The position numbers were made by a program, and so were the translations under genes. Below, one piece after another: positions 19,801 to 50,449 of a DNA stretch of 64,000 nucleotides. The first letter of the stretch is position 1, and each line of letters starts with the position of its first letter. The notes below the pieces were generated by a model, which was given only the letters and a program-made list of their open reading frames with translations, did no database searches and was not told the origin of the DNA. Source of the stretch: Alphaproteobacteria bacterium. Its GTDB lineage: Bacteria; Pseudomonadota; Alphaproteobacteria; GM7ARS4; G965262615. The stretch spans positions 1,088,001-1,152,000 of the forward strand of contig OZ253545.1 in the NCBI GenBank assembly GCA_965262615.1. Reading direction: 5' to 3'.

Positions 19801-20556
19801 ATGACAATCACAACCAGCGAAAAAAAGGAACTGCTAGATATAGGGAAACCCTACTATATGGAACCTCCCTTGCGATTGCTTGAGGATTTTTTGAGTAATT
19901 CAGATAAAAATTATCAAAGTGCGATCAAAGATTCCTTTGATTACATTCACGAATTCATGATTAATGCTGAAGATGAAGTCTACAGCATAATTAATGATAG
20001 AATTGCTCAAGGAATAATAACAGATGCATCCCAAGCAAAAAAAACAATCGCGGGGCATATGTTTTCAAACATGACGCGCTATATCTTCATCAAGAATAAA
20101 GAAGCTGGCAATATTTTTGAAAACACTTTTATCACAACTAAGGCAATAGCAGTCAAAAAATTGGGCGAAGATTTAGTCGTTTATATTGGAGAAGAAACGC
20201 AAAACCCAGACTGCGATATCATCATCTATAATGAAGGGACAAAGAAAATAATGATCCTTTCCCTTAAAACCTCTTTAAGAGAAAGAGCTGGGCAAACCAT
20301 TAAGTGGAAACTTCTTCTTGAAATAGCAACAAGCAAAAATGAAATTAAAAAGAAATATGATATAAGCTATCGCGGTCGGCAGATGCCAATCGTTTGCTTT
20401 GGCACGGTCAATTTTTACAATGAAATTAATCAGCCACAACAAAGAGGGTTGCTTAAATTATTTGATCAATCTTTTATTGCCAAACCGAATATAAAAAGCG
20501 ATATTGTTATAAGCATGTCTGAACTGCCTAATTTTGTCAATGAGAATTTGGGATGA
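19801..20556 (+). CDS. type II restriction endonuclease (BsaWI/Cfr10I-like CCGG-core family)
   Basis: PDCD...SLKTSLRERAGQ motif; AT-rich; coupled to a methyltransferase. Confidence 0.8.
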   Translation: MTITTSEKKELLDIGKPYYMEPPLRLLEDFLSNSDKNYQSAIKDSFDYIHEFMINAEDEVYSIINDRIAQGIITDASQAKKTIAGHMFSNMTRYIFIKNKEAGNIFENTFITTKAIAVKKLGEDLVVYIGEETQNPDCDIIIYNEGTKKIMILSLKTSLRERAGQTIKWKLLLEIATSKNEIKKKYDISYRGRQMPIVCFGTVNFYNEINQPQQRGLLKLFDQSFIAKPNIKSDIVISMSELPNFVNENLG

Positions 20557-21824
20557 GATATCAAGCCATACACAATTCACGCTATGATTTTGAGGGACAA
20601 AATTATGGTGAGGAATGTTTTCCTCACCTGCATAAGTATCCAGCGGCTATGATTCCTCAGCTGGGAATTGAAATTCTAAAGGAGTTGGACATTACGGATG
20701 GCTCAATGCTAGACCCCTATTGTGGCTCTGGCTCTTCTTTTGCCAGTGGTATATCTCTTGGATTAAGAGATTTCACTGGTTTTGACTTAAACCCTTTAGC
20801 TGTGTTGATTAGCAGAGTGAGATTTACAAAATTGAGTGTCCGTCAATTGCAAGAGGCAGAAAGTGAAATAAAAAAACGGGCTTATTCAATCCTTGCTCAT
20901 CATGGTGAGGAAAAAAATACGGCTGTTTTGTTGTCTGATTTTGATTACTGGTTCAGTGAAGAAGTGGCACACAAATTAACTTTACTCAAAAATCTGATAG
21001 AAGACTTGGAAAATGACCAAGTCAAAAAATTTTTAATGCTGGCATTGTCCTTGACTGTGCGTGACTGCTCTTATGTCAGAAACAATGAATTCAAATTGTA
21101 TAGAATTAAAGAAGATGATTTATTGATTTTTAATCCAGATGTTGTCGGCGTGTTTTTCTCGCACCTGAAAAAATCAATTCACATCTATCAAAATTACTAC
21201 GAACCATTTCTTGATGATGTTGTTTTGTCGGTCAGCAGAGGCTCTTTTGTCGATCGTCATAAGCAATATGATGTTGTGCTCACCAGCCCCCCTTATGGTG
21301 ATAGCCGAACAACGGTTGCCTACGGTCAATTTTCAATATTCACCAATCAGTGGCTGCTAGGCTTTCAAAATGCAAGAGCAGTGGATAAAAAATTGATGGG
21401 CGGTGAGAATATTTCGCTGAAAACTCCTTTGGTTCAATTAAATTCTCTCATAGATGATTATATCGCTCATATTGCAACAGTGGACAATAAGAGAGCAAGA
21501 GAAATAAACAGCTTTTATTACGATTTAGCAGCTTCTATTGGCAAAGTGTCACATTCTGTTAAAACACATGGTAGGAGTATTTATGTTGTTGGTAATAGAA
21601 CAGTCAAAGGCATTAATCTTCCAACAGATCAATTTGTTGCCGAACAATTTGAAAAAAACGGATTTAACCACCTGATGACATACAAAAGAAGTATAAGCAA
21701 TAAGAGGATGCCTCATCTAAACTCACCGTCAAACAAAAGTGGTGTGAAAATGGCAACGATGAAAGATGAATTCATCATTGTTTGTGAAAAAACAATGGTG
21801 GGGCTAAAAAGGTATTTACATTGA
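20553..21824 (+). CDS. N4-cytosine DNA methyltransferase
   Basis: HKYPA, LDPYCGSGS (motif I) followed by TSPPY (motif IV); AT-rich. Confidence 0.85.
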   Translation: MRYQAIHNSRYDFEGQNYGEECFPHLHKYPAAMIPQLGIEILKELDITDGSMLDPYCGSGSSFASGISLGLRDFTGFDLNPLAVLISRVRFTKLSVRQLQEAESEIKKRAYSILAHHGEEKNTAVLLSDFDYWFSEEVAHKLTLLKNLIEDLENDQVKKFLMLALSLTVRDCSYVRNNEFKLYRIKEDDLLIFNPDVVGVFFSHLKKSIHIYQNYYEPFLDDVVLSVSRGSFVDRHKQYDVVLTSPPYGDSRTTVAYGQFSIFTNQWLLGFQNARAVDKKLMGGENISLKTPLVQLNSLIDDYIAHIATVDNKRAREINSFYYDLAASIGKVSHSVKTHGRSIYVVGNRTVKGINLPTDQFVAEQFEKNGFNHLMTYKRSISNKRMPHLNSPSNKSGVKMATMKDEFIIVCEKTMVGLKRYLH

Positions 21825-22186
21825 CGACTTCTTCAAACTCACTTGGTAGTGCATTCTGGGATGCTGTTCGCTTTAATGAGGCGGGCTTGATTCCTGTCAT
21901 TGCTCAAGAGGCTTCCTCAGGGCGCGTTCTCATGCAGGCGTGGATGAACAAAGAGGCATTGCAGCAAACCCTTGCCACTGGACTTGTCACCTACTGGTCA
22001 CGCAGTCGCCAGCAGTTGTGGCAAAAGGGCGAGACATCAGGACACACACAGCACCTCGTGTCGTGGCGGCTGGATTGTGACGGCGACTCAATTCTGCTCC
22101 AAGTCAAACAAGACGGCGTTGCCTGTCACACCGGGCGCATGAGCTGTTTTTACCGCACATGGAATGGCAAAGCGTGGCAAGAGTGA
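21821..22186 (+). CDS. hisI: phosphoribosyl-AMP cyclohydrolase
   Basis: YWSRSR, KGETSGH, DCDGD, ACHTG..SCF. Confidence 0.95.
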   Translation: MTTSSNSLGSAFWDAVRFNEAGLIPVIAQEASSGRVLMQAWMNKEALQQTLATGLVTYWSRSRQQLWQKGETSGHTQHLVSWRLDCDGDSILLQVKQDGVACHTGRMSCFYRTWNGKAWQE

Positions 22187-24295: not shown

Positions 24296-26854
24296 ATGAG
24301 TAATCACTTAAATCAATTGTTATTATCTCTGTCTCGCTGGATGCAACGGCGTGACAAACAACGCATGCTCATGGTCGGCGTATACATTGTGTTGGGATTG
24401 CCCGTGCTTGCCATGCTATCACTGGTGGTGATTTTATCGGTGTATCACTTTCAATTGCCCGCCATTGATGACATTCAAACCTATCAGCCCAAGACGGCAT
24501 CGCGCATCTATAGCACCGATGGCATTTTGATTGGCGAATATGCCGAGCATAAACGCGTCCATACGCCGTATGATCAAATTCCTCCTCATGTGATTAATGC
24601 CTTCATCGCCGCCGAAGATAAGAATTTTTGGCATCACGGCGGCATTGATCTCATGCGCCTTGGCATTGCCACCATCACCAATGTGAGACGGTGGCTCATG
24701 GGACAGCGTCTGCAGGGTGCGTCTACCATCACGCAACAGGTGGCTCGTAATTTGTATCTATCACGCGAGGTGAGCATGGATCGCAAGCTCAAAGAAATGG
24801 TGCTGGCAATGCGACTGGAGGGATTAATCAGCAAAGAGCGCATCATGGAGATTTATCTCAGTGAGATTTATCTGGGCGGACGCTCTTACGGAGTCGCCCA
24901 TGCGGCGCACAATTATTTCGGCAAACGCATGGATGACCTGCACATTCATGAATCCGCTCTGCTGGCGGGTCTGCCCAAAGCCCCCAGTTATTATAATCCA
25001 CGACGCTATCCGACACGCGCCCTGCAACGGCGCAACACCATTTTGGCACGGATGGCACACGATGGTCTCATCAGTGATGCCACCATGCGGGCGTATCAAT
25101 CATTGCCACTGGGGGTGCGAGATCGCAATGAACGAGCCGAAGGCGAGCCGGACTCCAATTATTTTGTGGAAGAAGCCCGATTGCAATTGATTGATATTGT
25201 GGGTGAAGAGCCTCTCTACACAGAGGGTTTGACCATTTACGCCACGCTGGACAGCCGTCTGCAAGACATTGCCGAGCGCGCCCTGCGAGATGGTTTGACT
25301 TCCTTTGATCAACGACAAGGCTGGCGCGGCGCACTGACCCGGTTGCCTTCTCTTGACCAATGGCAGACACAGCTTCAGCAAATCAAAAAACCACGAAGCA
25401 TTTACAATTGGCAACTGGCTGTGGTTCTGCAAACCAATGACCAAGAGGCAGGCATCGGCTTGAGCGATGGCTGTCATGGCAGCATCTCGTTGGATGATAT
25501 GCAGTGGGCGCGCCGTCCTCTCACCCAAGAAGAAGAACAAGTGGTTGCCGATAACAAATACGACCTCCCTCTTCTTAAAAAAGTCTCTACCGCTTTGAGT
25601 GTGGGTGATGTCATTCTTGTGGAAAAAGTCAAGGATGAGGAGTCGGATGCTCCACTTCAGCGAGAGGCGGATTGTCGTGAGTATCCTGAACGGTATGCGT
25701 TGCGTCAAATTCCGGAGATTGAAGGGGCGATTGTGGCGATGAATGTTCATAATGGGCGCATTGTGGCAATGAGCGGTGGCTATTCGTGGGATCGCAGTTT
25801 GTTCAATCGTGCCACCCAAGCATTGCGTCAGCCGGGGTCTTCTTTTAAGCCGTTTGTCTATCTTGCGGCACTGGACAATGGATTCACGCCCACCACTGAA
25901 GTGATTGATGCCCCCTTGGTGCTGGAACAAGGAGAAGATGAGGATTTTTGGCGTCCTGAAAATTATTCGGAGAAGTTTTACGGTCCCACCTTGCTGCGGC
26001 GAGGATTGGAACGCTCACGCAATTTAATCACCATTCGCTTGGCTCATTCCATCGGCATGACTCCCATCATGAACTATGCCAATTTACTGGGGGTCTTGCC
26101 TGAAGATGCCAAAGCAGAGTTGTCGGTGGCGATTGGCTCACGGGAGACCACCTTGCTGCAGCTGACCACCGCTTATGCCATGTTTGCCAATGGAGGGTTA
26201 CGCGTGAAGCCTGCCTTCATTGAGCGGATTCAAAAGAAGAGTGGCGACACCATCTATCGCCGTGATGAGCGTGATTGCGGGTCTTGTGTGGGGGGCGATT
26301 ATGACGGCATGTCACTGCCGCCGTTTCCTCAAGATGAGCGCGCTCGTGTGATTGAAGCTCCCCTTGCCTATCAGATGGTCTCCATGCTGGAGGGCGTTGT
26401 GGAGCGCGGCACCGGCAGGCGCGCCCGCATAGAAAATGTGTCTCTGGCGGGCAAGACGGGCACCACCAATGACCACAAAGATGTGTGGTTTATCGGCTTT
26501 ACGCCCGATGTGGCATTGGGGGTGTTTGTGGGATACGACCAGCCGCGCTCCATGGGGGTTCTTGCCAATGGCGCGACGGTGTCATCGCCGATTTTTAAGC
26601 AATTCATGTGGGAGGCGTTTGCGGAAGAAGGCACATCGTTGTTTCGCGTGCCTGAGGGGATTCATTTGGTGCGTATTAATCGCATCACGGGGATGCCTGT
26701 TCGCAGTGAGACCGATGAGAAATACGCCATATTTGAGGCTCTGCGCACCACCGACACCGAAGACCTCGCCGCCACCGTGGGCAGAGATGCCGCCTACGGC
26801 AGAGACCGTCTGCTGGGGCGAGATAAAACCAAGAAACTATTGGGACTCTACTGA
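24296..26854 (+). CDS. mrcA: penicillin-binding protein 1A
   Basis: EDKNF..HGG, GASTITQQ, SSFK, SRN, KTGT; amiC-mrcA-prfB order. Confidence 0.95.
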   Translation: MSNHLNQLLLSLSRWMQRRDKQRMLMVGVYIVLGLPVLAMLSLVVILSVYHFQLPAIDDIQTYQPKTASRIYSTDGILIGEYAEHKRVHTPYDQIPPHVINAFIAAEDKNFWHHGGIDLMRLGIATITNVRRWLMGQRLQGASTITQQVARNLYLSREVSMDRKLKEMVLAMRLEGLISKERIMEIYLSEIYLGGRSYGVAHAAHNYFGKRMDDLHIHESALLAGLPKAPSYYNPRRYPTRALQRRNTILARMAHDGLISDATMRAYQSLPLGVRDRNERAEGEPDSNYFVEEARLQLIDIVGEEPLYTEGLTIYATLDSRLQDIAERALRDGLTSFDQRQGWRGALTRLPSLDQWQTQLQQIKKPRSIYNWQLAVVLQTNDQEAGIGLSDGCHGSISLDDMQWARRPLTQEEEQVVADNKYDLPLLKKVSTALSVGDVILVEKVKDEESDAPLQREADCREYPERYALRQIPEIEGAIVAMNVHNGRIVAMSGGYSWDRSLFNRATQALRQPGSSFKPFVYLAALDNGFTPTTEVIDAPLVLEQGEDEDFWRPENYSEKFYGPTLLRRGLERSRNLITIRLAHSIGMTPIMNYANLLGVLPEDAKAELSVAIGSRETTLLQLTTAYAMFANGGLRVKPAFIERIQKKSGDTIYRRDERDCGSCVGGDYDGMSLPPFPQDERARVIEAPLAYQMVSMLEGVVERGTGRRARIENVSLAGKTGTTNDHKDVWFIGFTPDVALGVFVGYDQPRSMGVLANGATVSSPIFKQFMWEAFAEEGTSLFRVPEGIHLVRINRITGMPVRSETDEKYAIFEALRTTDTEDLAATVGRDAAYGRDRLLGRDKTKKLLGLY

Positions 26855-26863
26855 GAACACACC

Positions 26864-27989
26864 ATGTCCTCCCCCTCCCCTTCCCATGATGACCAAAACC
26901 TTGAGAGCGTCAAACGCGACATTCGTGATGCATTGGCGATGCTCGGGAGGCGTCTTTGACGAACGAGGCTTGGGCAAGCGTCTCGCCGAATTGGAAGAGC
27001 TCACCGCGCGAGATGATTTGTGGAATGACCAAGAAAACGCCTCTCGGTTGTTGCGAGAAAAAACCCGCCTTGAGGCGCAGCTGCAGCGTTTTGCCTCATG
27101 GGAGCAACGGTGGGAAGATGCTCTGACGCTGGAGCAGTTGGCGCAGCAGGAATCCGATGATGAGGTGTTGCGGGAGGTGGCGGAATCCTTGTTGCCGCTG
27201 CATGGCGAATTAATGCAGGCGCGGTTTTTGACCATGATGGAGGGCGAGGCTGACCATCGGGATTGTTTCGTTGAGATTCATGCGGGCTCCGGCGGCACAG
27301 AGGCACAAGACTGGGCGGAGATGTTGCTGCGCATGTATATGCGCTGGGCGAATCGCCGTGATTTTGCCTGTGATTTCATTGAGAACAATGCCGGACAAGA
27401 AGCCGGCATCAAATCGGCAACCATTCGCATTGATGGTGAGTATGCCTATGGCTGGCTGAAGCGGGAGTCGGGGGTTCATCGCTTGGTGCGGCTCTCGCCG
27501 TTTGATTCCGCCATGCGCCGTCATACCAGTTTTGCCTCAATCAAATGCTATCCGGTGATTGATGACTCCATTGATATTGTCATTGAGGATAAAGATTTAC
27601 GCATTGACACCTATCGCGCTTCGGGCGCGGGCGGACAGCATGTCAACAAAACCGACAGTGCGGTGCGGATTACCCATTTGCCCACATCGCTGGTGGTGCA
27701 GTGTCAAAATGATCGCTCGCAGCATCGCAACAAGGCGGCGGCGATGACCATGCTCAAAGCCAAACTGTTTGAGCTGGAACTGCAAAAGCGCGAATCAGAA
27801 AAACAAGCCGGCAGACAGGCGGAAAAGGACATCTCGTGGGGCAATCAAATTCGCTCCTATGTGCTCCATCCCTATCGCATGATCAAAGACCTGAGAACTC
27901 ACCACGAGAGCGGCAACACCGATGCGGTATTAGGTGGCGAAATTGATGCCTTCCTGCAGGCATCTCTTACCGCCCAGCTGGAGTCATGA
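26864..27989 (+). CDS. prfB: peptide chain release factor 2 (programmed +1 frameshift)
   Basis: ATG 26864 reads to CTT-TGA-C at 26954-26960; the +1 frame carries SPF and GGQ motifs. Confidence 0.96.
26945..26960 (+). promoter_or_regulatory. RF2 autoregulatory frameshift site
   Basis: GGGAGG-CGT-CTTTGAC: internal SD 3 nt before the slippery CTT TGA. Confidence 0.93.
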
Positions 27990-29315
27990 GGATAAATTGA
28001 TTTCATTCAAAACTTTTTGAGCTTCGGCATAACCTTGTTTGGCAGATTCCTTTAGCCATTTCAACGCTTCTTTAACATCCTGCGTTACACCCTCGCCTTT
28101 GAAATACACTCCACCCAGAAGATATTGAGCTTTGGCAAGACCTTGTTCAGCAGCTTTTTTGTACCAATTGAACGCCTCTTTTTGATCCTGTGCTACACCC
28201 TCGCCATCGAAATAAATCACACCTAGATTATACTGGGCTTCATCCAATCCTTGTTCAGCAGCTTTTTTAATCCACTTGACTGCTTCTTTTTGATTATGCG
28301 TCACAGCCTCGCCTTTGTGATACATCACACCTAGATTATATTGTGCTTCGGCATGACCTTGCCCAGCAGCTTTTTCAAACCACTTAACTGCTTCTTTTAT
28401 ATCCTGTGTCACACCCTCGCCATTGAAATAAGCCAAGCCTAGATTACATTGGGCTGGAACATGACCTTGCTGGACAGCTTTTTTATACCAATTGACTGCT
28501 TGGGTTGTATCTTTCGTAATACCATCGCCTTCATGATAAACCACACCAAGATTGTATTGGGCTTCGACAATACCTTGTTCAGCAGCTTTTTTGTACCAAT
28601 TGAACGCTTGGGCTTTATCCTGTGCCACACCCTTGCCATTGGTATAAAACACCCCTAGATTATATTGTGCTTCGGCAAGACCTTGTTCAGCAGCTTTTTC
28701 AAACCACTTGATTGCTTTTGTTTGATCTTGCGTCACACCATCGCCATTGGCATAAAACACCCCTAGATTACATTGGGACTCGGCATGACCTTGTTCAGCA
28801 GCTTTTTTGTACCATTTCGCCGCTTTTTTATAATCTTGCGTCACTCCTTCACCCTTGGCATACATGATACCAAGATTGCATTGGGCTTTGGCATAACCTC
28901 GTTGGGCAGCTTTTTCAAACCATTTGGCAGCTTCGTTGTAATTCTTAATAGAAACACATTCTAAACCGTAGTTGAAATACCCCTGTGGAGAGCCAAAAAA
29001 CAAACCCTCTATAAATAAAACCAAATTTTTAATGCCAGTAGGAATGTCAGCATCTATGTTATTTGTCATTAGTTGCAACAGTTTAATAATTTTGTGGGGA
29101 AATCTAGCAATGCCAAAGAGGACAATCGCAAAGATTCCCAATTCTACTAACAATTCTTCCAGCTTATTCACTATTAAGCCAAAAGCGAAAAGCAATACAC
29201 AGATGCCAACTGCCCCTACACAGAGACAAAGTAACATCGCAAGGGCTTTCTTCCAATTGCGAGGCGCGTACTCTTTGATGAATTCTAATATGATTTTCAA
29301 ATTAGAATCAGCCAT
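27984..29315 (-). CDS. Sel1-repeat protein with N-terminal transmembrane segments
   Basis: About 9 repeats of AQYNLG..Y..G.GV.QD...A..W..KAAEQG; two hydrophobic helices. Confidence 0.93.
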   Translation of the reverse strand: MADSNLKIILEFIKEYAPRNWKKALAMLLCLCVGAVGICVLLFAFGLIVNKLEELLVELGIFAIVLFGIARFPHKIIKLLQLMTNNIDADIPTGIKNLVLFIEGLFFGSPQGYFNYGLECVSIKNYNEAAKWFEKAAQRGYAKAQCNLGIMYAKGEGVTQDYKKAAKWYKKAAEQGHAESQCNLGVFYANGDGVTQDQTKAIKWFEKAAEQGLAEAQYNLGVFYTNGKGVAQDKAQAFNWYKKAAEQGIVEAQYNLGVVYHEGDGITKDTTQAVNWYKKAVQQGHVPAQCNLGLAYFNGEGVTQDIKEAVKWFEKAAGQGHAEAQYNLGVMYHKGEAVTHNQKEAVKWIKKAAEQGLDEAQYNLGVIYFDGEGVAQDQKEAFNWYKKAAEQGLAKAQYLLGGVYFKGEGVTQDVKEALKWLKESAKQGYAEAQKVLNEINLSS

Positions 29316-29360
29316 GCACTGGACATACCATACTTGCCCCCCCTCCGTCCATGTTTTTCA

Positions 29361-29431
29361 CAACACTGAGGCGATTAGGCGGCGACATTGACGAATTCCT
29401 GCAAGCATCACTCACTGAGCAGCTGAAGTAA
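29361..29431 (+). repeat. relic copy of prfB 3' end
   Basis: Reads NTEA-(2-nt deletion)-LGGDIDEFLQASLTEQLK* versus prfB NTDAVLGGEIDAFLQASLTAQLES*. Confidence 0.88.
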
Positions 29432-30583
29432 AGCTTCTTGGGCTGGAGCAAGTCCTTGCTCGGCAGCTTTTTGATACAATTCCATGGCTTTTTTCTTATT
29501 CTTTTCTAATCCCCCATAACCATCTTCATACATGAGACCAAGATTGAATTGTGCTTGGGCATACCCTTGATTGGCAGCTTGTTGCCACCAAAACACCGCT
29601 TTTTTTATATTCTCCTTCAATCCCCCCTCACCTTTGCCATACATCAGACCAAGAGAGGTTTGGGCTGAGGCAAATCCTTGCTCGGCAGCTTGTTGCCACC
29701 ATTCCACCGCTTTTTTCTTATTCACCTTCACCCCCAGCCCGTTGTAATACATTATACCAAGATTGTTTTGGGCTTGGGTATACTCTTGTTGGGCAGATTT
29801 TTGATACAATTTCAACGCTTCTTCCATATCCCGCTTCAATCCCCCTTCGCCGTTTTGATACATCACACCAAGGTTGTTTTGGGCTGGAGCAAATCCTTGG
29901 TCGGCAGATTTTTGATACAATTCCAACGCTTTTTCATCATCTTGCGTCACCCCATAACCGTTGGAATACATCACACCAAGATTGTATTGAGCTTCGGCAT
30001 GTTTTTGTTGGGCAGCTTTTTGATACCATTGCACCGCCTTTTCATAATCCTGCGTCACTCCATAACCGTTGGCATACATCACACCAAGATTGGATTGGGC
30101 TTCGGTATTCTCTTGCTCGGCAGCTTTTTGATACCAATACACCGCTTTTTCATAATCCTGCGTGACACCTATGCCATTTTCATACATCACACCAAGATTG
30201 TATTGAGCTTCGGCATGTTTTTGTTGGGCAGCTTTTTGATACCATTGCACCGCCTTTTCATCATCCTGTGTCACTCCCCAACCATTGTCATACATCACAC
30301 CAAGATTGTTTTGGGAATCGGCATGACCTTGTTCAGCAGATTTTTGCCACCATTGCACCGCCTCTTCATCATCCTGCGTCACCCCATCACCGTTGAGATA
30401 CATCCAACCAAGCTCTGCTTGAGATTCGGCATCCCCTTGTTTGGCAGATTGCAATATCTCATAGTGGGAGTCTGATAAGGCATCATTCGCCGCGCTCAAG
30501 GAAAAACATGTCATGACAATGGCGAACAAAAACGCCGTGCGACTCACACGCCCCGCCGAGATATTTGCTTTATGCCAATTCAT
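29408..30583 (-). CDS. Sel1-repeat protein with signal peptide
   Basis: About 9 Sel1 repeats; start MNWH at 30583 preferred because the upstream ATG lies inside the promoter motif. Confidence 0.93.
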   Translation of the reverse strand: MNWHKANISAGRVSRTAFLFAIVMTCFSLSAANDALSDSHYEILQSAKQGDAESQAELGWMYLNGDGVTQDDEEAVQWWQKSAEQGHADSQNNLGVMYDNGWGVTQDDEKAVQWYQKAAQQKHAEAQYNLGVMYENGIGVTQDYEKAVYWYQKAAEQENTEAQSNLGVMYANGYGVTQDYEKAVQWYQKAAQQKHAEAQYNLGVMYSNGYGVTQDDEKALELYQKSADQGFAPAQNNLGVMYQNGEGGLKRDMEEALKLYQKSAQQEYTQAQNNLGIMYYNGLGVKVNKKKAVEWWQQAAEQGFASAQTSLGLMYGKGEGGLKENIKKAVFWWQQAANQGYAQAQFNLGLMYEDGYGGLEKNKKKAMELYQKAAEQGLAPAQEALLQLLSE

Positions 30584-30622
30584 CCAATCACTATATCCCT
30601 CGTCCATGTTTTTGCAACACTG

Positions 30623-31708
30623 TCATAATCTTTCTTTGATTTTATTCAAGGCTTCTTGAGCATCGCCATGACCTTGCTCGGCGGCTTGTTGCCACCATTC
30701 CATCGCTTTTTCCGTGTCTTGCGGGACACCCTCGCCAGTGAAATAAATGATGCCCAGATAGAACTGAGATTGGGTAAAACCTTGCTGGGCGGCTTTGGTA
30801 ATCCATTGTGCCGCCTGCCGATCATTTGCTTCCACACCGTAGCCATCGTAATAAGCCACGCCCAGATTATGCTGAGCGAAAACAAAACCCTGTCCAGCCG
30901 CTTTTTTGAACCATTTCACGGCTTGTGTTTGATCCCTCGTAATGCCATCACCATTGGCATACGCCATACCGAGATTATGCTGGGCGAGAACAAAACCCTG
31001 TCCAGCCGCTTTTTTATACCACCTGACGGCTTCTTTTTGATTCTGCGCGATGCCATCACCATTGGCATACGCCACAGCGAGATTGTGTCGGGCGAGAACA
31101 AAGCCTTTGTGGGCGGCTTTTGTGTACCATTTGACGGCTTCTTCTTGATCCTTCGTAATCCCATCACCGTTGGCATACGCCACGCCGAGATTGTATTGAG
31201 CAGCGCCAAGATTTTGCTCCGCCGCTTTTGTGTACCACTTGACGGCTTGTGTTTGATCCTTCATAATCCCATAGCCATTGTGATAAGCCACACCCAGATT
31301 GAATTGGGCTTGGGCAAGACCTTGTTCAGCAGCTTTTTGAAACCATTTGCCAGCTTCGGTGTCATTCTGGCTCAAAAGACATTCCACACCGTATTGAAAA
31401 TACCCGCGCGGCGAGCCGAAAAACAAACCCTCCACGAAGAAAAGCGATTTTTTAATGGAAGTTGCCATGTCATCATGTGACATCGGCGGCAATGATTGAA
31501 TCATGGCGGGGGAAAACGCGGCAACGAGAAAGAGACAATTCAACAACAATCCCAAGACTTCTGGCAGTCTTCCCAGCCCATCCGTTGCCGCCATAAGGAG
31601 CAGAACAGGAAAATTGCAACAAATAAGTCTTGCAAGAGCCTCCGACAAATCGCGAGGCAGTTGTTCTTTGATGAATTCTAATGTGATTTTGGTATCAGAA
31701 GCAATCAT
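30623..31708 (-). CDS. Sel1-repeat protein with N-terminal transmembrane segments
   Basis: Paralog of the 27984 gene (LEFIKE..PR, EGLFFGSP.GYF.YG.EC); start MIASD at 31708. Confidence 0.92.
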   Translation of the reverse strand: MIASDTKITLEFIKEQLPRDLSEALARLICCNFPVLLLMAATDGLGRLPEVLGLLLNCLFLVAAFSPAMIQSLPPMSHDDMATSIKKSLFFVEGLFFGSPRGYFQYGVECLLSQNDTEAGKWFQKAAEQGLAQAQFNLGVAYHNGYGIMKDQTQAVKWYTKAAEQNLGAAQYNLGVAYANGDGITKDQEEAVKWYTKAAHKGFVLARHNLAVAYANGDGIAQNQKEAVRWYKKAAGQGFVLAQHNLGMAYANGDGITRDQTQAVKWFKKAAGQGFVFAQHNLGVAYYDGYGVEANDRQAAQWITKAAQQGFTQSQFYLGIIYFTGEGVPQDTEKAMEWWQQAAEQGHGDAQEALNKIKERL

Positions 31709-31751
31709 GCGCCGGACATACCACGACTGCACTTTTCAATCAATATTTTGA

Positions 31752-31829
31752 CAACACCAAGAGGCGGTATTAGGTGGCGACATTGACAAATTTTTGCAGG
31801 CATCTTTGACTGCCCAATTGGAGTCATGA
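31752..31829 (+). repeat. relic copy of prfB 3' end
   Basis: Reads NT-(2-nt insertion)-EAVLGGDIDKFLQASLTAQLES*. Confidence 0.92.
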
Positions 31830-32787
31830 TGATTTTTTAACTACACTCAAGGCTCTTCGAGCTGGGACATAACCTTGTTCATCAGCTTTTTCAAGCCACT
31901 TGACACCTTCTTTTTGATCCTGCGTCACACCCTCGCCTTTACCATAAGCCACACCTAGATTATATTGAGCTGGGGCATCACCTTGTTCGGCGGCTTTTCG
32001 CCACCACCGCACCGCCTCCTCTTTATCCTTATCCACACCGTTGCCATTAAGATAAGCCAAGCCAAGATTGTATTGAGCTTTGGCATAATTTTGTTTGACA
32101 GCTTCTTTGTACCATCGCACTGCTTTCTCTTCATCCTTACCCACACCATTGCCATTTTCATACATCACGCCAAGATTATATTGAGCTTGAACAATTCCTT
32201 GTTGGGCAGCTTCTTGCCACCACCGCACGGCTTCTGTTTGATTCTGCGTCACACCCTCGCCATTGAAATACATCACACCGAGATTATATTGTGCTTCGGC
32301 ATGACCCTTCTGGGCTGCGCTTTTGAAGTGCTGCAACGCTTTTACCTTATTTGGCTTCATCACTATCACCACTGTAATACCTCATACCAAGCCTGAATGC
32401 TTCTTCGGCTTCGTATTTATTTTTCTTGTCTCGCATGAATAAAAGCTCGCCAAGAATTGGAATTCCGATGACTAAAACAATACTAATTGCAAAACCTGAC
32501 AAAAGAACGAGCAGAACAACAAACCCCCAAAAAATGAAGGATGCATCCATATGTGCCACCAGCCAGTTTTCTTGCAAACTTGACAGAGCATCCGCCAATG
32601 CACTAATAGCTAGGGATGAAAAATAAACAATGGGAAGAAAGAATACCGCAAGCCAAAAAAAGTTATGCCAATACCTTGGCAGGTTCTTCATGAAGGCTGA
32701 AACTTCAGATTCTCTAAGGTCACCTATTACTTGATGCTCTGGACGCACAGAGGCTACAAAACCGCTAGTATTTTCATTCTCACCCAT
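31824..32787 (-). pseudogene. frameshifted transmembrane Sel1-repeat gene
   Basis: ORF 32347-32787 ends inside a Sel1 repeat (AFRLGMRYYSGD); ORF 31824-32372 continues it (NKVKALQHFKSAAQKG) in another frame. Confidence 0.8.
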
Positions 32788-32861
32788 CCTCCTATTATAT
32801 CCCCGTCCATATTTTTTGCAACACTTTGCGGGGATTCATCACAAGGGGTGGAGCTGGCGAG

Positions 32862-32906
32862 GGCGCAATTGATGCCTTGGCATCACTCACTGTACAGTTG
32901 AAGTAA
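32862..32906 (+). repeat. degenerate relic of prfB 3' end
   Basis: GGCGCAATTGATGCCTTG-GCATCACTCACTGTACAGTTGAAGTAA, GAIDAL-ASLTVQLK*. Confidence 0.7.
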
Positions 32907-34166
32907 AGCCTCTCGGGCATCGGCATGACCTTGCTCAGCAGCTTTTTGCCACCATTTCACCACTTTTTCATAATTTCGCGCCACCCCCTCACCGTTGGCA
33001 TACATCTCACCAAGATTGAATTGGGCTTCAGCATTCCCTTGTTTGGCAGCTTTTTGATACCACTGCACCGCTTTTTTCTGATCCTGCGTTACCCCCTCAC
33101 CTTCGTCATACATCATACCAAGATATAATTGTGCTAGGGCATAACCTTGTTTGGCAGCTTTTTGCCACCATTCTATCGCTTTTTCCATATTCTGCCTCAA
33201 TCCCCCCTCACCATCGGCATACATGACAGCAAGCATGAATTGGGCTTTGGCGACACCTTGTTGGGCAGCTTGTTGTAACCAGAACACCGCTTTTCCCTTA
33301 TCCTGTGCCACCTCCTCACCGTTCACATACATGACACCAAGAGCTGTTTGAGCTAGGGCATCACCTTGTTGGGCAGCTTTTTGCCACCATTCTATCGCTT
33401 TTTCCTTATCCTGCCTCAATCCCCCCTGCCCTTTGCCGTACATGAGACCAAAATTATATTGGGCTTCAGCATTCCCTTGTTCAGCAGCTTTTTGCCACAA
33501 TTCCACCGCTTTTTCATAATCTTGCGTCACTCCCTTACCGCCATGATACATCAAGCCAAGATTAAATTGAGCATCAGCATAATCTTGTTGGGCAGCTTTT
33601 GTGTACCACTTGACCGCTTCTTTTTTATCCTGCGTCACACCATAGCCATTGGCATAAGCCACACCAAGATTATATTGAGCTGGAGCATCACCTTGCTCAG
33701 CTGCTTTTTGATACCATTGCACCGCTTTTTCATAATTTTGCGTCACCCCCTTACCGGACTCATACATGACACCAAGACCGAATTGGGCTTCGGCAATACC
33801 TTGCTCGGCAGCTTTTAGCCACCATTCCGCCGCTTTTTCATAATTCTGAGTCACCCCATAACCATTGGCATACATGACACCAAGAGAAAATTGGGCTTGA
33901 ACAATATCTTGTTGGGCAGCTTTTTGATACCAGAACATCGCTTTTTCATAATCCTGCGTCACCCCCTCACCGTTGAAATACATAAAGCCAAGATTGTGTT
34001 GGGCTTCGGCATCCCCTTGTTTGGCAGATTGCAATATCTCATATTGCTCATCTGATAACGCTACCGCCACTGAGCTCAAGGCAGGGAATGTAATAAAGAC
34101 AGTGACAAGCAAGAACGCCGCGCGACTCACACGCCGCGCCGATATCTTTGTTTCGTTCCAATTCAT
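32883..34166 (-). CDS. Sel1-repeat protein with signal peptide
   Basis: About 10 repeats; paralog of the 29408 gene; start MNWN at 34166. Confidence 0.93.
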   Translation of the reverse strand: MNWNETKISARRVSRAAFLLVTVFITFPALSSVAVALSDEQYEILQSAKQGDAEAQHNLGFMYFNGEGVTQDYEKAMFWYQKAAQQDIVQAQFSLGVMYANGYGVTQNYEKAAEWWLKAAEQGIAEAQFGLGVMYESGKGVTQNYEKAVQWYQKAAEQGDAPAQYNLGVAYANGYGVTQDKKEAVKWYTKAAQQDYADAQFNLGLMYHGGKGVTQDYEKAVELWQKAAEQGNAEAQYNFGLMYGKGQGGLRQDKEKAIEWWQKAAQQGDALAQTALGVMYVNGEEVAQDKGKAVFWLQQAAQQGVAKAQFMLAVMYADGEGGLRQNMEKAIEWWQKAAKQGYALAQLYLGMMYDEGEGVTQDQKKAVQWYQKAAKQGNAEAQFNLGEMYANGEGVARNYEKVVKWWQKAAEQGHADAREALLQLYSE

Positions 34167-34230
34167 CCAATCACTATACCCCTCGCCCATCTTTTTGCAA
34201 CACTTAGCGACACTGTGTCACCAATGGTGC

Positions 34231-34848
34231 ATGAAACATTTGACCCTTTGTCTTTTATCTTCGTTTTTTCTATCGTCTGTGGCATTGGCGGAGTCCTCGT
34301 CGCCGTTTGATGCCATGGGGGTGCGTGATGTGATGGCATCGGCGCGGGCTGGCGACAAAGAGGCGCAACATGCCCTCGCCATGCGCTATTATCACGGACG
34401 CGGCATCAAGCAGAATCTGGAAAAGGCCTATGAGTGGCACACCAAAGCCGCCATGCAAGATCACAGCGAGTCGCTGAACGAATTGGGATGGATGCACCTC
34501 AACGGTGAGTTCGTGCCGCAAGACGAAGACATCGCCATCGCCTTTTATGAGCGTTCGGCGGCGTTGGGCAATCCTCATGGGTGTGCGCATCTGGCGGAGA
34601 TTTTTGCCATGCGCGGCGACTTCATGAACGCCACCATGCACCTGATGATGGCCAGCGACCCCACCGCAAGCCGCTATGTCATGAGCATGGGACACGCCGA
34701 CCCAGAACTCCTCAAAATGCAAATCATGGATGAACTCACCCCCGAGCAGCTCATCACCGCTCGCCACAACGCCATGACATGGCAGCATCAACGGCGCGAC
34801 ACCATGAACAATCAATCGCCCCTGCCCTTTGCGGTGAGCTTTCAATAA
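34231..34848 (+). CDS. divergent Sel1-repeat exported protein
   Basis: Signal peptide MKHLTL..ALA, 2-3 Sel1 repeats, C-terminal LTPEQL..A...A..W; host-like GC and distinct from the array genes. Confidence 0.85.
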   Translation: MKHLTLCLLSSFFLSSVALAESSSPFDAMGVRDVMASARAGDKEAQHALAMRYYHGRGIKQNLEKAYEWHTKAAMQDHSESLNELGWMHLNGEFVPQDEDIAIAFYERSAALGNPHGCAHLAEIFAMRGDFMNATMHLMMASDPTASRYVMSMGHADPELLKMQIMDELTPEQLITARHNAMTWQHQRRDTMNNQSPLPFAVSFQ

Positions 34849-34988
34849 ATTATCGCTCATTCGCCCCGCTCCCCTTCACCGGGGGGCGAGGCGCGCGGCT
34901 TGTTTTGATGATCGCTCACATGAATTGCCACACAGAGCGTGGCGCGCGAGGCATTGTTTTAATGATCACTTTTTGCTACAGTCCTTCT

Positions 34989-36134
34989 ATGGATGGTCAG
35001 ACACATGTCTCACTGCGTCAAAAAATTGACCACATCCGCACGATCCTGTCGCAAGAATATCAAAGAAAACACAAAGTCCCCTGGATTATCGCCTATTCGG
35101 GCGGTAAAGACAGCACATTTCTTTTGCATCTTGTCATGGAGTGCCTGCACAATGTGCCTGAAGAAAAGCGGGTGCGTCCTGTTTATGTTGTGTCCAATGA
35201 TACCCTTGTGGAAAGTCCGCTTGTGAGTGAGCATTTACACAAAAGCATGAAGAAAATCAAATCATCGGCAAAAAAGCTTAATCTGCCCATCACCGCCACA
35301 ATCACAGAGCCAGCACATTCCGATTCCTTTTGGGTGCAAGTCATTGGCAAAGGATACCCAACGCCCAATCGTATGTTTCGCTGGTGCACCGACCGTCTTA
35401 AAATCAAGCCCTCAACGGAATTCATCAAAAAGCAAGTGAGCCAAAGCGGCAATGTGATTTTACTCATGGGGACACGCAAATCAGAAAGTGCCTCAAGAGC
35501 CGCATCCATCAATCGCCACAAACGCAAAGGCAACAGCATTTACAGTGACCACAATTCGCTGGAGCATTGCAAGGTCTTGTCCCCCATCGTGGATTTTGAG
35601 GATGATGAACTATGGACATTTCTTTTGCAATCCAAGCCCCCCTGGGGAGGCAGCTATCGCAATTTGATTACATTGTATCGCAATGCGCGCGGCGGCGAAT
35701 GCCCCACCGTCTTGAGCAAAACCGAAGCCCCAGGGTGCGGTTCGGCATCGCCGCGTTTTGGCTGTTGGGTCTGCACCGTGGTGGAAAAGGATAGCAGTCT
35801 TGAAGGATTGGTGGATTCGGGCTTTGAGCAGTTTGAGGCATTGGTGGATTTTCGCTTATGGCTACTGGAAATAAGAAGTGACCCCACATATCGCCTCGCC
35901 ATTGACCGCAGAGGCAAAATCCGCACGAGAAAAGACGGCACAATCATGCCAAGAGCCTTTACAATTAAGGCGCGTGAGAAAATTTTGCAAAAACTATTGG
36001 AACTGCAAGAAGAAATGGCGATGAAATTAATTACGCCCCAAGAGATTGAAACAATTCGCGAAATATGGCAAAAAGACAAAGTGATGTTGAACAAGTCACC
36101 ACACAAAAACACACGCCCCGTGTGTGTCATCTAA
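34989..36134 (+). CDS. dndC: DNA phosphorothioation sulfurtransferase DndC (PAPS reductase family)
   Basis: WIIAYSGGKDS, NDTLVESP, FWV.VIGKGYP.P, FRWCTDRLKI.P, RFGCWVCTVV.KD.S. Confidence 0.85.
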   Translation: MDGQTHVSLRQKIDHIRTILSQEYQRKHKVPWIIAYSGGKDSTFLLHLVMECLHNVPEEKRVRPVYVVSNDTLVESPLVSEHLHKSMKKIKSSAKKLNLPITATITEPAHSDSFWVQVIGKGYPTPNRMFRWCTDRLKIKPSTEFIKKQVSQSGNVILLMGTRKSESASRAASINRHKRKGNSIYSDHNSLEHCKVLSPIVDFEDDELWTFLLQSKPPWGGSYRNLITLYRNARGGECPTVLSKTEAPGCGSASPRFGCWVCTVVEKDSSLEGLVDSGFEQFEALVDFRLWLLEIRSDPTYRLAIDRRGKIRTRKDGTIMPRAFTIKAREKILQKLLELQEEMAMKLITPQEIETIREIWQKDKVMLNKSPHKNTRPVCVI

Positions 36135-36152
36135 TCAGTCGGAGTATTCCAA

Positions 36153-37937
36153 ATGACGACAGAAAATGACGACTTGACAATCAGAGAAATGCCTGTTGGG
36201 GAAATTCTCGGAGGAAAATTTCTCGTTCCAGAATATCAGCGCGGCTATCGTTGGAGTAGAGACGAGGTTATAGAACTTCTTGAAGACATTCAAGATGCCC
36301 TCAATGATGGCGATGACTACTATTTCATTGGCTCTTTCAATTTGATTAACGATAATCCAAACAAACCTTTTGAGGTTGTTGATGGGCAACAAAGATTGAC
36401 AACAATTTCATTAATCGCAAGAGAAGCGCGCTTTTTGTTGCAAAAAGAGACTTCTAATTTGGGAGAAGAAGGGGTGGTTCATCTTATGTCAGCCCTTCTT
36501 AAAATTTCAGACGAGGTTGTTCACTTTGATCGAAAAAGTGAACGAGAAGGATTTGAAAAACTTATGAAAGGCGACGCTACGAGCCACGACCAAATGTCAG
36601 TTGCTTCGAAAGAAGTAAAAGAATTTATAAAAAGAAAAAAAGAAGAGACCTCTCATGTAGGAAATACCGATGAGCTTGTTAGGTATATGAATTACCTTCT
36701 CAACAATGTGAAGGTAGTTTTTATCGTTGTTAAAGATGAAAAGATTGCATACAAAATTTTTGAAGCTCTTAATCTTCGGGGCAAACCTCTTGGCACGATA
36801 GATTCAATAAGAATTTTTGTGTTCCGAAATATCAACAGGGAAAAATTTGAGTACTGCTTCAAATTGTGGGAAGACTTGGAGAATACCATGAGAATGACCC
36901 ACAAAAGAGTTGATGACCTTATGACTCAAATGTTTAATACATTCTTTGAGTGTCATAGAGGCATTAGAATTGAGGAAAATCACTTGTTCTCTAAAGTGGA
37001 GAATTCCTTTAAGCAGGAAGCACAAGATGAAAAAGAAAAAGAAAAAGAAAGCCAGAAAATATATCTGGATTTTTTTGAGAAAATCGTATCTATAGATGGT
37101 GGTAGCAAGAAAAATTTTCCTAACTATTACTTGGCTTCTGTTAAGCATGACCATGACCTGTGGAAAAAATTGGATGTGCCGATTTTTTTCAGAGAAGCTT
37201 TGTGCGGAACTAAAATATGGGATGGAAATAAAATATGCAGAGCTCCCATTGCTGCTATGTTTCATGCGTTAAATATGCCAAAACCTCGCATTACAACAGA
37301 ACAAGCTAACAATATTATGCATGACATGTACAGCTTAATTTCTCGCCTTGAAGCGTTGGGAATTCTTCGCGGGCAAAATGTATCAAAATGCAATTCTCGG
37401 CTAGCTGCTTTTGCTAAAAAACTCATCTATACAGAAGAAAATTTTGAGACAATCGCTCAAGAACTTTTTCAAGGCATCCATGACCAAGTTGATGGGGTCA
37501 TGTCTGATAAAGATTTTAGAGTTGAAATGACGGCTAATAAAAAAGTCAGAAGAGACAAAGCAAAAAGATTATTGCGGGATATTGAATTTGCCCGTAACAA
37601 GCAACTTGCCAATGTGGGTAAAGAAATTCACATTGAACACATTTTGCCTCAAAATCCAAATGAAAAAGATTGGAAAGATTTTTCAGTGGAAGATAGGGAT
37701 TACCACACAAATCGCATTGGTAATTTTGCTTTGTTATTGGATGTTGATAATCAAAGAATCGGCAATAAGCCTTTTGCTGATAAAGTGCTTGTATACGCCG
37801 AAAACACGATAACAACAACGAATGAATTAGCCAAAAACACAGATTGGACAAAAGATGATATTGATGAACGCAGTAAGCGGCTGGCAAAAGAGATTGCTGG
37901 TGTATGGAATTTCCATTACTACAACCCCTCACCCTGA
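36153..37937 (+). CDS. DUF262 + DUF1524 protein (GmrSD/SspE-like nuclease)
   Basis: VPEYQRGYRW, VDGQQRLTT, IFEALNLRGKPL, IEHILPQ..IGNFALL...N; AT-rich. Confidence 0.88.
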   Translation: MTTENDDLTIREMPVGEILGGKFLVPEYQRGYRWSRDEVIELLEDIQDALNDGDDYYFIGSFNLINDNPNKPFEVVDGQQRLTTISLIAREARFLLQKETSNLGEEGVVHLMSALLKISDEVVHFDRKSEREGFEKLMKGDATSHDQMSVASKEVKEFIKRKKEETSHVGNTDELVRYMNYLLNNVKVVFIVVKDEKIAYKIFEALNLRGKPLGTIDSIRIFVFRNINREKFEYCFKLWEDLENTMRMTHKRVDDLMTQMFNTFFECHRGIRIEENHLFSKVENSFKQEAQDEKEKEKESQKIYLDFFEKIVSIDGGSKKNFPNYYLASVKHDHDLWKKLDVPIFFREALCGTKIWDGNKICRAPIAAMFHALNMPKPRITTEQANNIMHDMYSLISRLEALGILRGQNVSKCNSRLAAFAKKLIYTEENFETIAQELFQGIHDQVDGVMSDKDFRVEMTANKKVRRDKAKRLLRDIEFARNKQLANVGKEIHIEHILPQNPNEKDWKDFSVEDRDYHTNRIGNFALLLDVDNQRIGNKPFADKVLVYAENTITTTNELAKNTDWTKDDIDERSKRLAKEIAGVWNFHYYNPSP

Positions 37938-38294
37938 GGGTGATTCTAGCAAATCTAATAACGCTTGAATTTTTATTGGTTTTTTCATGAGATGGAGCGT
38001 CATGCCGCGAGGTGATTCCACCGAATTTCGTGATTCCATCGCCTCGCCGCTGAGCATAATCAGATGGGTGATGCCCAGCGCGCGCCACTCATCTGCTGGT
38101 GGGGTGCGTGCGGCGTGGGAGGCTGTCTGGCGGTCGTAAATGAGAGTCACTCGTTTGTGCGGCGGCGGTGCGGTGAGCTCCTTCTTTTGCTTGACCTCTA
38201 TTTTTGCTATGACTTGCTCTATGATGCGTTTGAGTTCCCGCAAGAACAATGCGTCACTGACATCCAGAATCACAAGGTGATGGCGACTTTTCAT
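37929..38294 (-). CDS. degenerate receiver-domain-like small protein
   Basis: Ends ..LMKKPIKIQALL; divergent from the L,D-transpeptidase, where a response regulator often lies in alphaproteobacteria. Confidence 0.4.
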   Translation of the reverse strand: MKSRHHLVILDVSDALFLRELKRIIEQVIAKIEVKQKKELTAPPPHKRVTLIYDRQTASHAARTPPADEWRALGITHLIMLSGEAMESRNSVESPRGMTLHLMKKPIKIQALLDLLESPSG

Positions 38295-38816
38295 ATTTTT
38301 CACACCCCTCACACTCCTTTTCGCGCCCATGCGGGCATTGTCAGATGGCGGCACCATACCATCTCTTGCCTGCTGGGCAAAGCGGGCGTGACGCGCCACA
38401 AGAAAGAAGGCGATGGCGCAACGCCCGTGGGCATCATGCGGGGACACGCATTGTTCTACCGCAGCGACCGCATCCCGCCGCCGCCGTGCCCCATCACCCC
38501 CCGACCCATCCGCCGCTCCATGCGCTACTGTGATGACCCCGCCTCCCCTCTTTACAACCGCCTGTTTTTCACCTCATCCCCGCCGTCATGTTCTCATGAG
38601 CGATTGTGGCGCAATGACGGCATCTACGACATCATCCTCATCCTCACCCACAATCGCCACCCCAAAGTCGCGGGACACGGCAGCGCAATCTTCATTCATC
38701 TAGCAGACAATGAAACCTCCCACACCCAAGGCTGCATAGCTTGTCACTATGACGATTTGTGCAATTTGTTGTCTCATGTCTCTCGCTCAAGTCGCTTTAT
38801 CATCCATCCCTCATGA
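38280..38816 (+). CDS. L,D-transpeptidase (YkuD)-family protein
   Basis: KKEGDGATP.G, CDDP.SP.YN, GSAIFIH...TQGCIA. Confidence 0.88.
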   Translation: MATFHIFHTPHTPFRAHAGIVRWRHHTISCLLGKAGVTRHKKEGDGATPVGIMRGHALFYRSDRIPPPPCPITPRPIRRSMRYCDDPASPLYNRLFFTSSPPSCSHERLWRNDGIYDIILILTHNRHPKVAGHGSAIFIHLADNETSHTQGCIACHYDDLCNLLSHVSRSSRFIIHPS

Positions 38817-50402: not shown

Positions 50403-50449
50403 CCCTTTTACTATCCATATTTTTTGCATCAAATGCAAGAGTGATGATG

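Follow-up and report, generated by a model that had tools for sequence, protein, structure and literature searches.

Large conjugative elements of the SXT/R391 type carry an integrase and insert in prfC, replacing the 5' end of this gene. Sponge and amoeba symbionts are believed to interact with their hosts through Sel1 and other eukaryote-like repeat proteins, and to our knowledge it is poorly understood how these gene sets become diverse in small genomes that lack mobile elements. In Escherichia coli, e14 and phage 21 bring a substitute 3' end into icd, and the pseudo-end icdC flanks e14 (Hill et al. 1989, cited in PMC13626634). In the portion of PMC13626634 that we draw on, e14 is described as a prophage of 15 kb that brings a site-specific recombination system of its own, and recombination between icd and icdC yields a working chimeric protein with a few conservative changes. 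Transfer hotspots that lack mobile elements, are flanked by core genes and show recombination in these flanking genes have been described (Oliveira et al. 2017, PMC5635113, excerpts), and tandem amplification by microhomology and unequal crossover is exemplified by Slack et al. 2006 (PMC1428787, excerpts). In a narrow literature search we found no paper on genomic islands integrated in prfB, and novelty in print is not claimed. In this study, we analyzed a stretch of 64,000 nucleotides (nt) from an alphaproteobacterium (assembly GCA_965262615.1, contig OZ253545.1, positions 1,088,001 to 1,152,000; hereafter the window, with its first letter as position 1). In this stretch the 3' end of prfB, the gene of release factor 2 (RF2), recurs in an array of Sel1-repeat genes directly behind prfB.

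The displaced prfB ends, called relics below, are best supported as once-functional RF2 tails of different alleles, because their differences are biased to synonymous sites and both intact relic types are found on whole RF2 sequences of relatives. The explanation that we tentatively favor for the array, with a confidence just short of even, is that a variable slot lies between prfB and ykuD, and that its units are gained and shuffled by homologous recombination in the prfB tails.

Displaced prfB ends in the Sel1 array

The host genome is a single contig of 1,542,258 bases with 51% G+C and a completeness of 98.3%, and the best named matches of its RF2 point to an alphaproteobacterium. The public runs containing the stretch are labelled sponge or marine metagenome, or bear host-organism codes. 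DNA evidence at run level comes from the short-read contigs of the public runs X1, X6, X8 and X9; X6, X8 and X9 are three samples of one study, and X6 may be the source sample. Sel1 repeats break short-read contigs, most joints are rearrangements at the level of these repeats, and no contig covers a whole unit. Uncovered parts of these contigs and the lack of circle or deletion joints between tails are uninformative. The features of the array, with window positions and strand, are as follows.

26863 (start approximate)..27989, +, prfB (RF2), with PCRF and RF-1 domains; 98% identity to P0001
27914-27989, +, working tail t0, the last 76 nt of prfB, ending ...NTDAVLGGEIDAFLQASLTAQLES and stop
27914..27919, +, CAACAC in the prfB codons GGC AAC ACC (G-N-T); left edge of the repeat unit
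27984..29315, -, Sel1 gene A1, 443 amino acids, class A; 8 Sel1 repeats, E 2e-108
29361..29431, +, relic r1, CAACAC and prfB tail of type EA(I)LGGDIDEFLQASLTEQLK and stop
29408..30583, -, Sel1 gene B1, class B, signal-peptide-like start MNWHKAN; 9 Sel1 repeats
30590..30620, -, promoter module of B1, TTGCAA...TATAGT; upstream edge CAACAC at 30615-30620, stop of A2 2 nt further
30623..31732, -, Sel1 gene A2, class A; 49% identical to A1
31752..31829, +, relic r2, CAACAC and prfB tail of type EAVLGGDIDKFLQASLTAQLES and stop
31824..32787, -, Sel1 gene C, in two overlapping frames, 32347-32787 and 31824-32372
32794..32824, -, promoter module of C, TTGCAA, 16 nt, TATAAT; CAACAC at 32819-32824
32862..32906, +, relic r3, degraded, ..AIDAL--ASLTVQLK and stop; nhmmer E 4e-5
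32883..34166, -, Sel1 gene B2, class B; 10 Sel1 repeats; 61% identical to B1
34173..34203, -, promoter module of B2; rightmost CAACAC at 34198-34203

The prfB gene was recognized as an RF2 gene by its PCRF and RF-1 domains and by the programmed +1 frameshift site CTTTGAC at 26954. Homology between prfB and the relics begins at CAACAC, and the sequences upstream of CAACAC are unlike each other. A whole-genome nhmmer search with a profile of t0, r1 and r2 returned only those copies and r3, the next match being at E 0.24; r3 was absent from the profile that detected it. In pairs, t0, r1 and r2 are 77-79% identical. Relic r1 has a 2-nt deletion 7 nt after CAACAC and has TAA where relatives have TCA. 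Relic r2 has a 2-nt insertion directly after CAACACC and retains the TCATGA stop overlap with gene C. Relic r3 has a 6-nt deletion and the same TAA as r1, and its tail-like part is separated from CAACAC by 37 nt of unexplained sequence. An earlier, sequence-only reading of this DNA had reported the prfB end at 29361-29431, at 31752-31829 and, degraded, at 32862-32906, and a 2-nt indel just after the junction. The whole-genome profile confirmed the three copies, and the indels (a deletion in r1 and an insertion in r2) do lie within 9 nt after CAACAC.

An inverted repeat, GATGCC-N8-GGCATC, was noticed in t0 (27945-27964), and the deletion in r3 makes GATGCC-TT-GGCATC (32875-32888). It was considered as a recombinase core and rejected, as it is absent from r1 and r2. 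Since neither of these relics has kept it, the repeat is probably due to chance.

Five reverse-strand Sel1-repeat genes, A1, B1, A2, C and B2, stand behind prfB, with 4-10 repeats per gene (E 1e-57 to 5e-123). A1, A2 and C have a membrane-type N-terminal part in common, and B1 and B2 a signal-peptide-like start. Every relic is situated at the stop end of one of these genes. The stop of A1 overlaps that of prfB in the palindrome TCATGA, the last 7 codons of B1 (LQLLSE and stop) run antisense through r1, and the C-terminus of B2 (LQLYSE and stop) runs antisense through r3. In 4/4 window units that have a tail and in two further junctions of X1, the type of the tail in its 3' half follows the class of the gene. 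Tails that end in ES and stop go with class A or C genes ending at TCATGA, and tails that end in K and stop go with class B genes, which read on through the TAA-mutated relic. Gene C has a frameshift near 32350-32372, in an A-rich run, and is either a pseudogene or the product of a sequencing or base-calling error. The junction is identical in type at 29361, 30615, 31752 and 32819, and GCAACAC stands at both outer edges. Since contigs of X6, X8 and X9 (29287-29711 or 29237-29711) cover the r1 junction from A1 to B1 with 0 differences, this junction is not an assembly artefact.

Origin of the displaced ends and of CAACAC

Proportions of synonymous (pS) and nonsynonymous (pN) differences were compared over 18-19 comparable codons, and the same number of changes was placed at random in 20,000 trials, with the following results.

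t0-r1: pS 0.53, pN 0.12; observed synonymous count reached by chance in 1.0%
t0-r2: pS 0.54, pN 0.10; observed synonymous count reached by chance in 0.2%
r1-r2: pS 0.70, pN 0.11; observed synonymous count reached by chance in 0.1%

The pN/pS of the tail pairs is thus about 0.15-0.23 (P 0.001-0.01), a signature of purifying selection that disagrees with neutral evolution of extra copies. The antisense overlap with the Sel1 frame cannot explain the synonymous bias, because this frame extends over no more than 24 nt in r1 and 6 nt in r2. The counts of the sequence-only reading were reproduced: r2 and prfB differ in 10 codons, 7 of these changes being synonymous, the Nei-Gojobori method gives r1 a count of 7.0 synonymous changes relative to prfB, and r1 and r2 differ from each other mainly at synonymous sites. 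Its suggestion that the relics are functional RF2 tails of different alleles gained weight both from this bias and from the occurrence of their types on P0001 and P0128.

A search with RF2 gave one 90%-identity cluster of 13 sequences that, as a cluster, is 98% identical to the window RF2, the next match being at 71%. The r2-type tail (LGGDIDKFLQASLTAQLES) is found on the whole RF2 P0001, which ends ...DAVLGGDIDKFLQASLTAQLES, and the last 21 residues of r2 are those of the P0001 tail. The r1-type tail (EAILGGDIDEFLQASLTEQLK) is found on the whole RF2 P0128, which ends ...EAILGGDIDEFLQASLTEQLKS. P0131 carries the tail type of the window, and the remaining cluster members are recombinant combinations. 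P0001 and P0128 have the bodies most unlike the window RF2 (13 and 16 of 329 columns, as against 3-12 in the other nine). At the DNA level, 108 differences separate a 25,438-nt contig of a relative in X1 from the window over 26000-28032. The r2-type synonymous pair CAA TTG (27977, 27978) occurs on a working tail in 4/4 runs aligned; it is the only form in X1 and accounts for part of the depth in X6, X8 and X9.

CAACAC had been reported at every unit boundary, and this was borne out. Between 27900 and 34300, all six copies on the + strand (27914, 29361, 30615, 31752, 32819, 34198) are unit edges, where 1.56 copies are expected. On the reverse strand the junction reads GTG|TTGCAA, 16 nt, TATAGT or TATAAT, 6 nt, ATG, at 30617, 32821 and 34200. 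Judged from its sequence, this GTG|TTGCAA module is a putative leaderless-type promoter, so that the annotated B1 start at 30607 (MDEGYSDW), inside the promoter, would be false. At Sel1 genes, the module (GTGTTGCAAAAA..TATAGT..ATG) misleads gene callers into adding a conserved but false N-terminus, MDEGYSDW or MGEGYSDW. The same module (GTG|TTGCAA-N16-TATAGT) precedes Sel1 genes outside the array, at C1:934203 and C1:1069902, whose flanks have no prfB tail by nhmmer or local alignment. CAACAC is the upstream edge of this Sel1 promoter module. The module, TTGCAA-N16-TATAGT/TATAAT, was seen at 3/5 units. The proposal of a unit that carries both a tail and its own promoter therefore held in part: the promoter was found at those three units, but the A2 unit (30615-31751) has no tail and that of r3 is offset by 37 nt.

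The 27 nt after the rightmost CAACAC (34204-34230) do not resemble a prfB tail and are followed by a Sel1 gene that begins on the + strand at 34231. Faded prfB tails were sought beside the outside modules and after 34203 and were rejected, as alignments were no better than shuffles (P 0.10-0.99) and nhmmer gave nothing. The 7 nt GCAACAC are common to prfB (GGC AAC ACC) and to the edge of the Sel1 promoter (TTTTTGCAACAC). Illegitimate recombination at this microhomology, if it produced the first junction, would account for the missing tail after 34198. Insertion of every unit into a prfB tail would not, although an old tail could have faded.

Proposed gain of units in the prfB-ykuD slot

The nearest genomes in GTDB belong to the same order only, and their RF2 is 52-68% identical, so that the array cannot be compared there. 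The gene order mrcA-prfB-(~1 kb)-ykuD is found in two of the three same-order genomes examined: prfB and ykuD are ~1 kb apart in G001 and G002, and in G003 ykuD was not found in the 1.5 kb examined. Since ykuD follows prfB in these genomes and stands at 38064 here, positions 27990-38063 form a slot between core genes. Behind the array, the slot and its right-hand border contain the following features.

34231..38063, +, rest of the slot, with Sel1, DndC-type and GmrSD-type genes up to ykuD
34231-34848, +, Sel1 gene beyond the array
34779-36134, +, DndC-type gene
36153-37937, +, GmrSD-type gene
38064-38816, ykuD, right-hand core gene of the slot

The homologous recombination that we favor would work as follows. 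The left part of the slot would be a head-to-tail array of five units, each consisting of CAACAC, a prfB 3' end, a reverse-strand Sel1 gene and a promoter module ending in GTGTTG. A RecA-type crossover between the working tail and the tail copy of another unit would add, remove or swap units. The partner unit may belong to the array itself, to a sister chromosome or to DNA acquired from a related strain. As each unit opens with a prfB end, crossovers in the tail change the units yet would leave prfB whole each time. The 3' part of the new RF2 tail would arrive together with the incoming Sel1 gene, and the relic would keep the 3' half of the former working tail. The first junction of promoter, CAACAC and tail may have arisen by illegitimate recombination at the 7-nt microhomology GCAACAC, and later gains by homologous recombination of the unequal or Campbell type, for the most part with diverged strains as the source of the DNA. 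The first bases after CAACAC would travel with the promoter end, so they would never be crossed into the working gene and never be selected; this is our proposed reason for the 2-nt indels next to the junction. The occurrence of the r1 and r2 types on the most divergent RF2 bodies fits import from diverged strains.

Several observations agree with such exchange. In 12 full RF2 sequences compared at the protein level, 8/28 pairs of polymorphic columns in the tail were four-gamete pairs. This shows that the working tails of relatives are mosaics, with crossovers inside the tail and not only at CAACAC. The sequence-only reading had offered, beside a new insertion mechanism, homology-anchored recombination between strains, and with mosaic tails the latter fits better than insertion at CAACAC. 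It had also seen no integrase, which holds for the whole genome. The only two PF00589 tyrosine recombinases match best as XerD/XerC-type and lie far from the window, there is no resolvase (PF00239, 0 matches) and no rve transposase (0) in the whole genome, and no recombinase domain was found among the 24 window ORFs scanned. RecA, ComEC and DprA are present.

The genome contains 79 tandem arrays with a period of at least 60, of which 30 touch the 3' end of an open reading frame (ORF) (24 with a period below 600) and 8 span two convergent ends. Since duplication across gene ends is this common, the proposed first step is plausible. As a separate observation, these arrays over gene ends are often 95-100% identical, and fresh copies of the last 50-90 nt stand just downstream of many genes; examples are C1 18200-18657, 229460-230276, 347517-348027, 852546-852896 and 1509506-1510577.

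The following points weigh against the explanation by homologous recombination in the tails. The four-gamete rate is similar in the RF2 body (63/300 pairs, protein level) and in the tail, so the tail as a special hotspot is unsupported, and the density of polymorphism in the tail (8/24 columns) equals the maximum of the variable N-terminal part. Tails that are 77-79% identical are a poor substrate for RecA unless those of donor and recipient were closer. The ComEC and DprA models also match non-competent control genomes, and the matches thus do not show DNA uptake. The order of units in relatives is known only from fragmentary X1 contigs and from the protein tails of RF2, and the microhomology origin is based on present-day sequence only. 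The indels within 9 nt of CAACAC in r1 and r2 could also be explained by a staggered site-specific cut.

If homologous recombination in the tails is the right explanation, the coding end of an essential gene serves as a portable homology handle, by which single genes accumulate without an integrase, and the C-terminus of a translation factor is reshuffled as a side effect. The locus would be a readable record in which each gain is stamped by the former end of an essential gene. It makes testable how much cassette-like gene gain can be achieved by plain homologous recombination.

Insertion of circles composed of tail, Sel1 gene and promoter at (G)CAACAC, by XerC/XerD or by an unrecognised enzyme, seems unlikely to us. 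Each insertion would restore prfB and push the old tail rightward. This would suit the position of CAACAC at 6/6 unit edges against 1.56 expected, the former function of the relics, their decay, which rises to the right with r3 most degraded, and the 2-nt indels that adjoin the junction in r1 and r2. The two Xer-like recombinases could act in trans, and known integrase-less elements do use Xer recombinases in trans. However, CAACAC is explained by the promoter module, which occurs outside the array without tails, and the oldest junction (34198) has no tail behind it. The tail-like part of r3 begins 37 nt after CAACAC, the mosaic tails of relatives mean that exchange is not limited to CAACAC, and no inverted-repeat core is conserved across the tails, GATGCC-N8-GGCATC being confined to t0. 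No circle junction was seen, though short-read contigs could hardly reveal one. The claim of the sequence-only reading for a new cassette-insertion mechanism with CAACAC as its site is thus unsupported in that form, given the module outside the array, the lack of a tail at 34198 and the mosaic tails. It is likewise doubtful that the array is a true integrase-free cassette system, in which small circles or fragments with single Sel1 units pass between symbiont strains and a host enzyme such as XerCD inserts them at (G)CAACAC. If it were, the spare prfB end would be both the capture handle and the guarantee of cell survival, and the C-terminus of RF2 would be rewritten at every capture.

An old array common to the whole lineage, without transfer between strains, is about equally improbable. 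It would have grown by tandem duplication, and internal crossover or gene conversion would then have switched the tail of prfB, exposing every tail to selection from time to time. In its favor, all units have the same two end modules, B1/r1 and B2/r3 share the derived TAA and the antisense C-terminus as if they were copies of one post-relic unit, and the genome has many tandem duplications and RecA. On the other hand, a pN/pS of ~0.15-0.2 between two present-day relics needs near-constant selection, for which occasional switching is hardly enough. The tails matched by the relic types belong to the relatives whose RF2 bodies diverge most, a better fit to import, and r1 and r2 are intact except for one indel each, yet the paralogs are only 49-61% identical in protein.

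We consider it quite improbable that the units are remnants of integrase-bearing islands, inserted serially in the 3' end of prfB and trimmed to the selected gene. A substitute gene end with a displaced pseudo-end is the signature of such islands, as with icd and icdC flanking e14 (PMC13626634, in the portion used), and foreign-type defence genes (DndC, GmrSD) do stand in the slot. But Sel1 ORFs, promoter modules and tails fill the 6.3 kb of the array, none of the ORFs of at least 40 amino acids is an integrase fragment, every one of the five units would need trimming to identical edges at both ends, and a phage-type integrase is lacking in the genome.

It is very improbable that plain tandem duplication in place produced the units and that the surplus tails then decayed neutrally. 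The head-to-tail units with one junction type, the GCAACAC microhomology at the two outer edges and the many other tandem duplications over gene ends in the genome would agree with it, but the strong synonymous bias (P 0.001-0.01), the relic-type tails on whole prfB of relatives and the variation of the tail among relatives do not. The sequence-only reading had set three tests in advance, and two of them were applied, whether a relic-type tail is ever found on an intact prfB and whether dN/dS (the ratio of nonsynonymous to synonymous change) between relics is near 1. Both came out against plain duplication, and on these sequence data we reject it.

Hardly credible at all is an assembly artefact that joined strain haplotypes in series: the samples do contain several strains with different prfB tails, and alternative letters at 27929-27935 have 12.6/39.3 of the depth in X6, 14.5/21 in X8 and 5.1/13.9 in X9, but the relics have frameshifts and no prfB body, contigs of three runs cover the junction from A1 through r1 to B1 without difference, and the X1 relative has promoter-CAACAC-relic junctions of its own.

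Relatives of the locus were also sought elsewhere. A scan of JGI metagenomes for CAACAC-N(2-12)-TTAGGNGGNGANATTGA gave 3 matches, all in unrelated genes, so the JGI collection appears to be without a relative of the locus. A search for close relatives of the whole B1 protein gave only long Sel1 proteins with 35-60% identity, and residues 1-60 of B1 as query gave no match.

Further observations concern the surroundings of the array. At least 150 Sel1 matches were listed genome-wide, and nearly all of them lie within ~90 kb around the window (C1:1069000-1160800). In the window the Sel1 repeats (27984-49132) are interspersed with core genes such as prfB and leuS. The DndC-type sulfurtransferase scored 357 bits with TIGR03183 (cut-off 290), and the GmrSD-type nuclease gene (DUF262 + DUF1524) is directly next to it. 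This pair (34779-37937) lies within the slot, where G+C is low (0.37-0.38 at 36001-38000), and no further dnd genes were seen near it. A 423-amino-acid ORF at 49167-50438, a fusion of an N6/N4 DNA methylase domain with an HNH nuclease domain, adjoins a Sel1 gene with 12 repeats. Another islet of low G+C (0.37-0.39 vs ~0.51) at 20001-22000 has ORFs at 19801-20556 and 20553-21824. Elsewhere in the genome, C1:1358889-1385808 holds ~18 head-to-tail paralogous genes of ~500 amino acids each, with a period of ~1.5 kb and 73-82% matches.

Comparison with known systems

The locus resembles the SXT/R391 elements in that insertion occurs into a release-factor gene that is restored by the sequence of the element. 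It differs in that the 3' end of prfB is restored, whereas SXT/R391 elements supply the 5' end of prfC and bear an integrase. With integrons it shares one-gene units beside a fixed site, the newest presumably nearest to that site. There is, however, no IntI, and the array is not an integron: the two Xer-like proteins reached 123 and 106 bits with the integron model TIGR02249, whose cut-off is 265. No attC-like element was noticed at the unit ends, although no search with an attC model was made, and these ends consist of prfB tail and promoter module. Unlike integron cassettes, 3/5 units have their own promoter.

The array is like a microhomology-driven amplification in its head-to-tail units, its single novel junction type and the GCAACAC at both outer edges. 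It differs from such an amplification in that its units are old, with 49-61% protein identity, and in that the gene ends have not decayed neutrally.

The closest anatomy to that of the prfB array is that of e14 and phage 21 in icd. In both cases incoming DNA gives a substitute gene end and the old end is displaced; here this concerns three prfB ends, two of which match working tails of relatives. An identical junction core, as in e14 and icd, could be seen in CAACAC at 6/6 edges, yet CAACAC belongs to a promoter module that occurs away from prfB as well. The array further differs in that its unit is one Sel1 gene of 1.1-1.4 kb, in that three displaced ends are stacked, and in that no phage-type integrase is present, and these differences decide against grouping it with such elements.

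To the extent that the excerpts of Oliveira et al. describe them, transfer hotspots without mobile elements share with this locus a fixed place between core genes, here the prfB-ykuD slot, the lack of mobility genes and signs of homologous recombination in a flanking gene. Content may also vary among close strains: X1 contigs, which are fragmentary and include no whole slot, run from common junctions into different Sel1 sequence, a short relic of X1 has no counterpart in the window, and RF2 tail types vary among the 13 cluster members. In comparison with those excerpts, the locus differs in that the crossover zone enters the coding end of the essential flanking gene, copies of this end are kept and units pile up. 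We file the locus as a hotspot between core genes in which the coding end of an essential flanking gene would serve as the handle for recombination.

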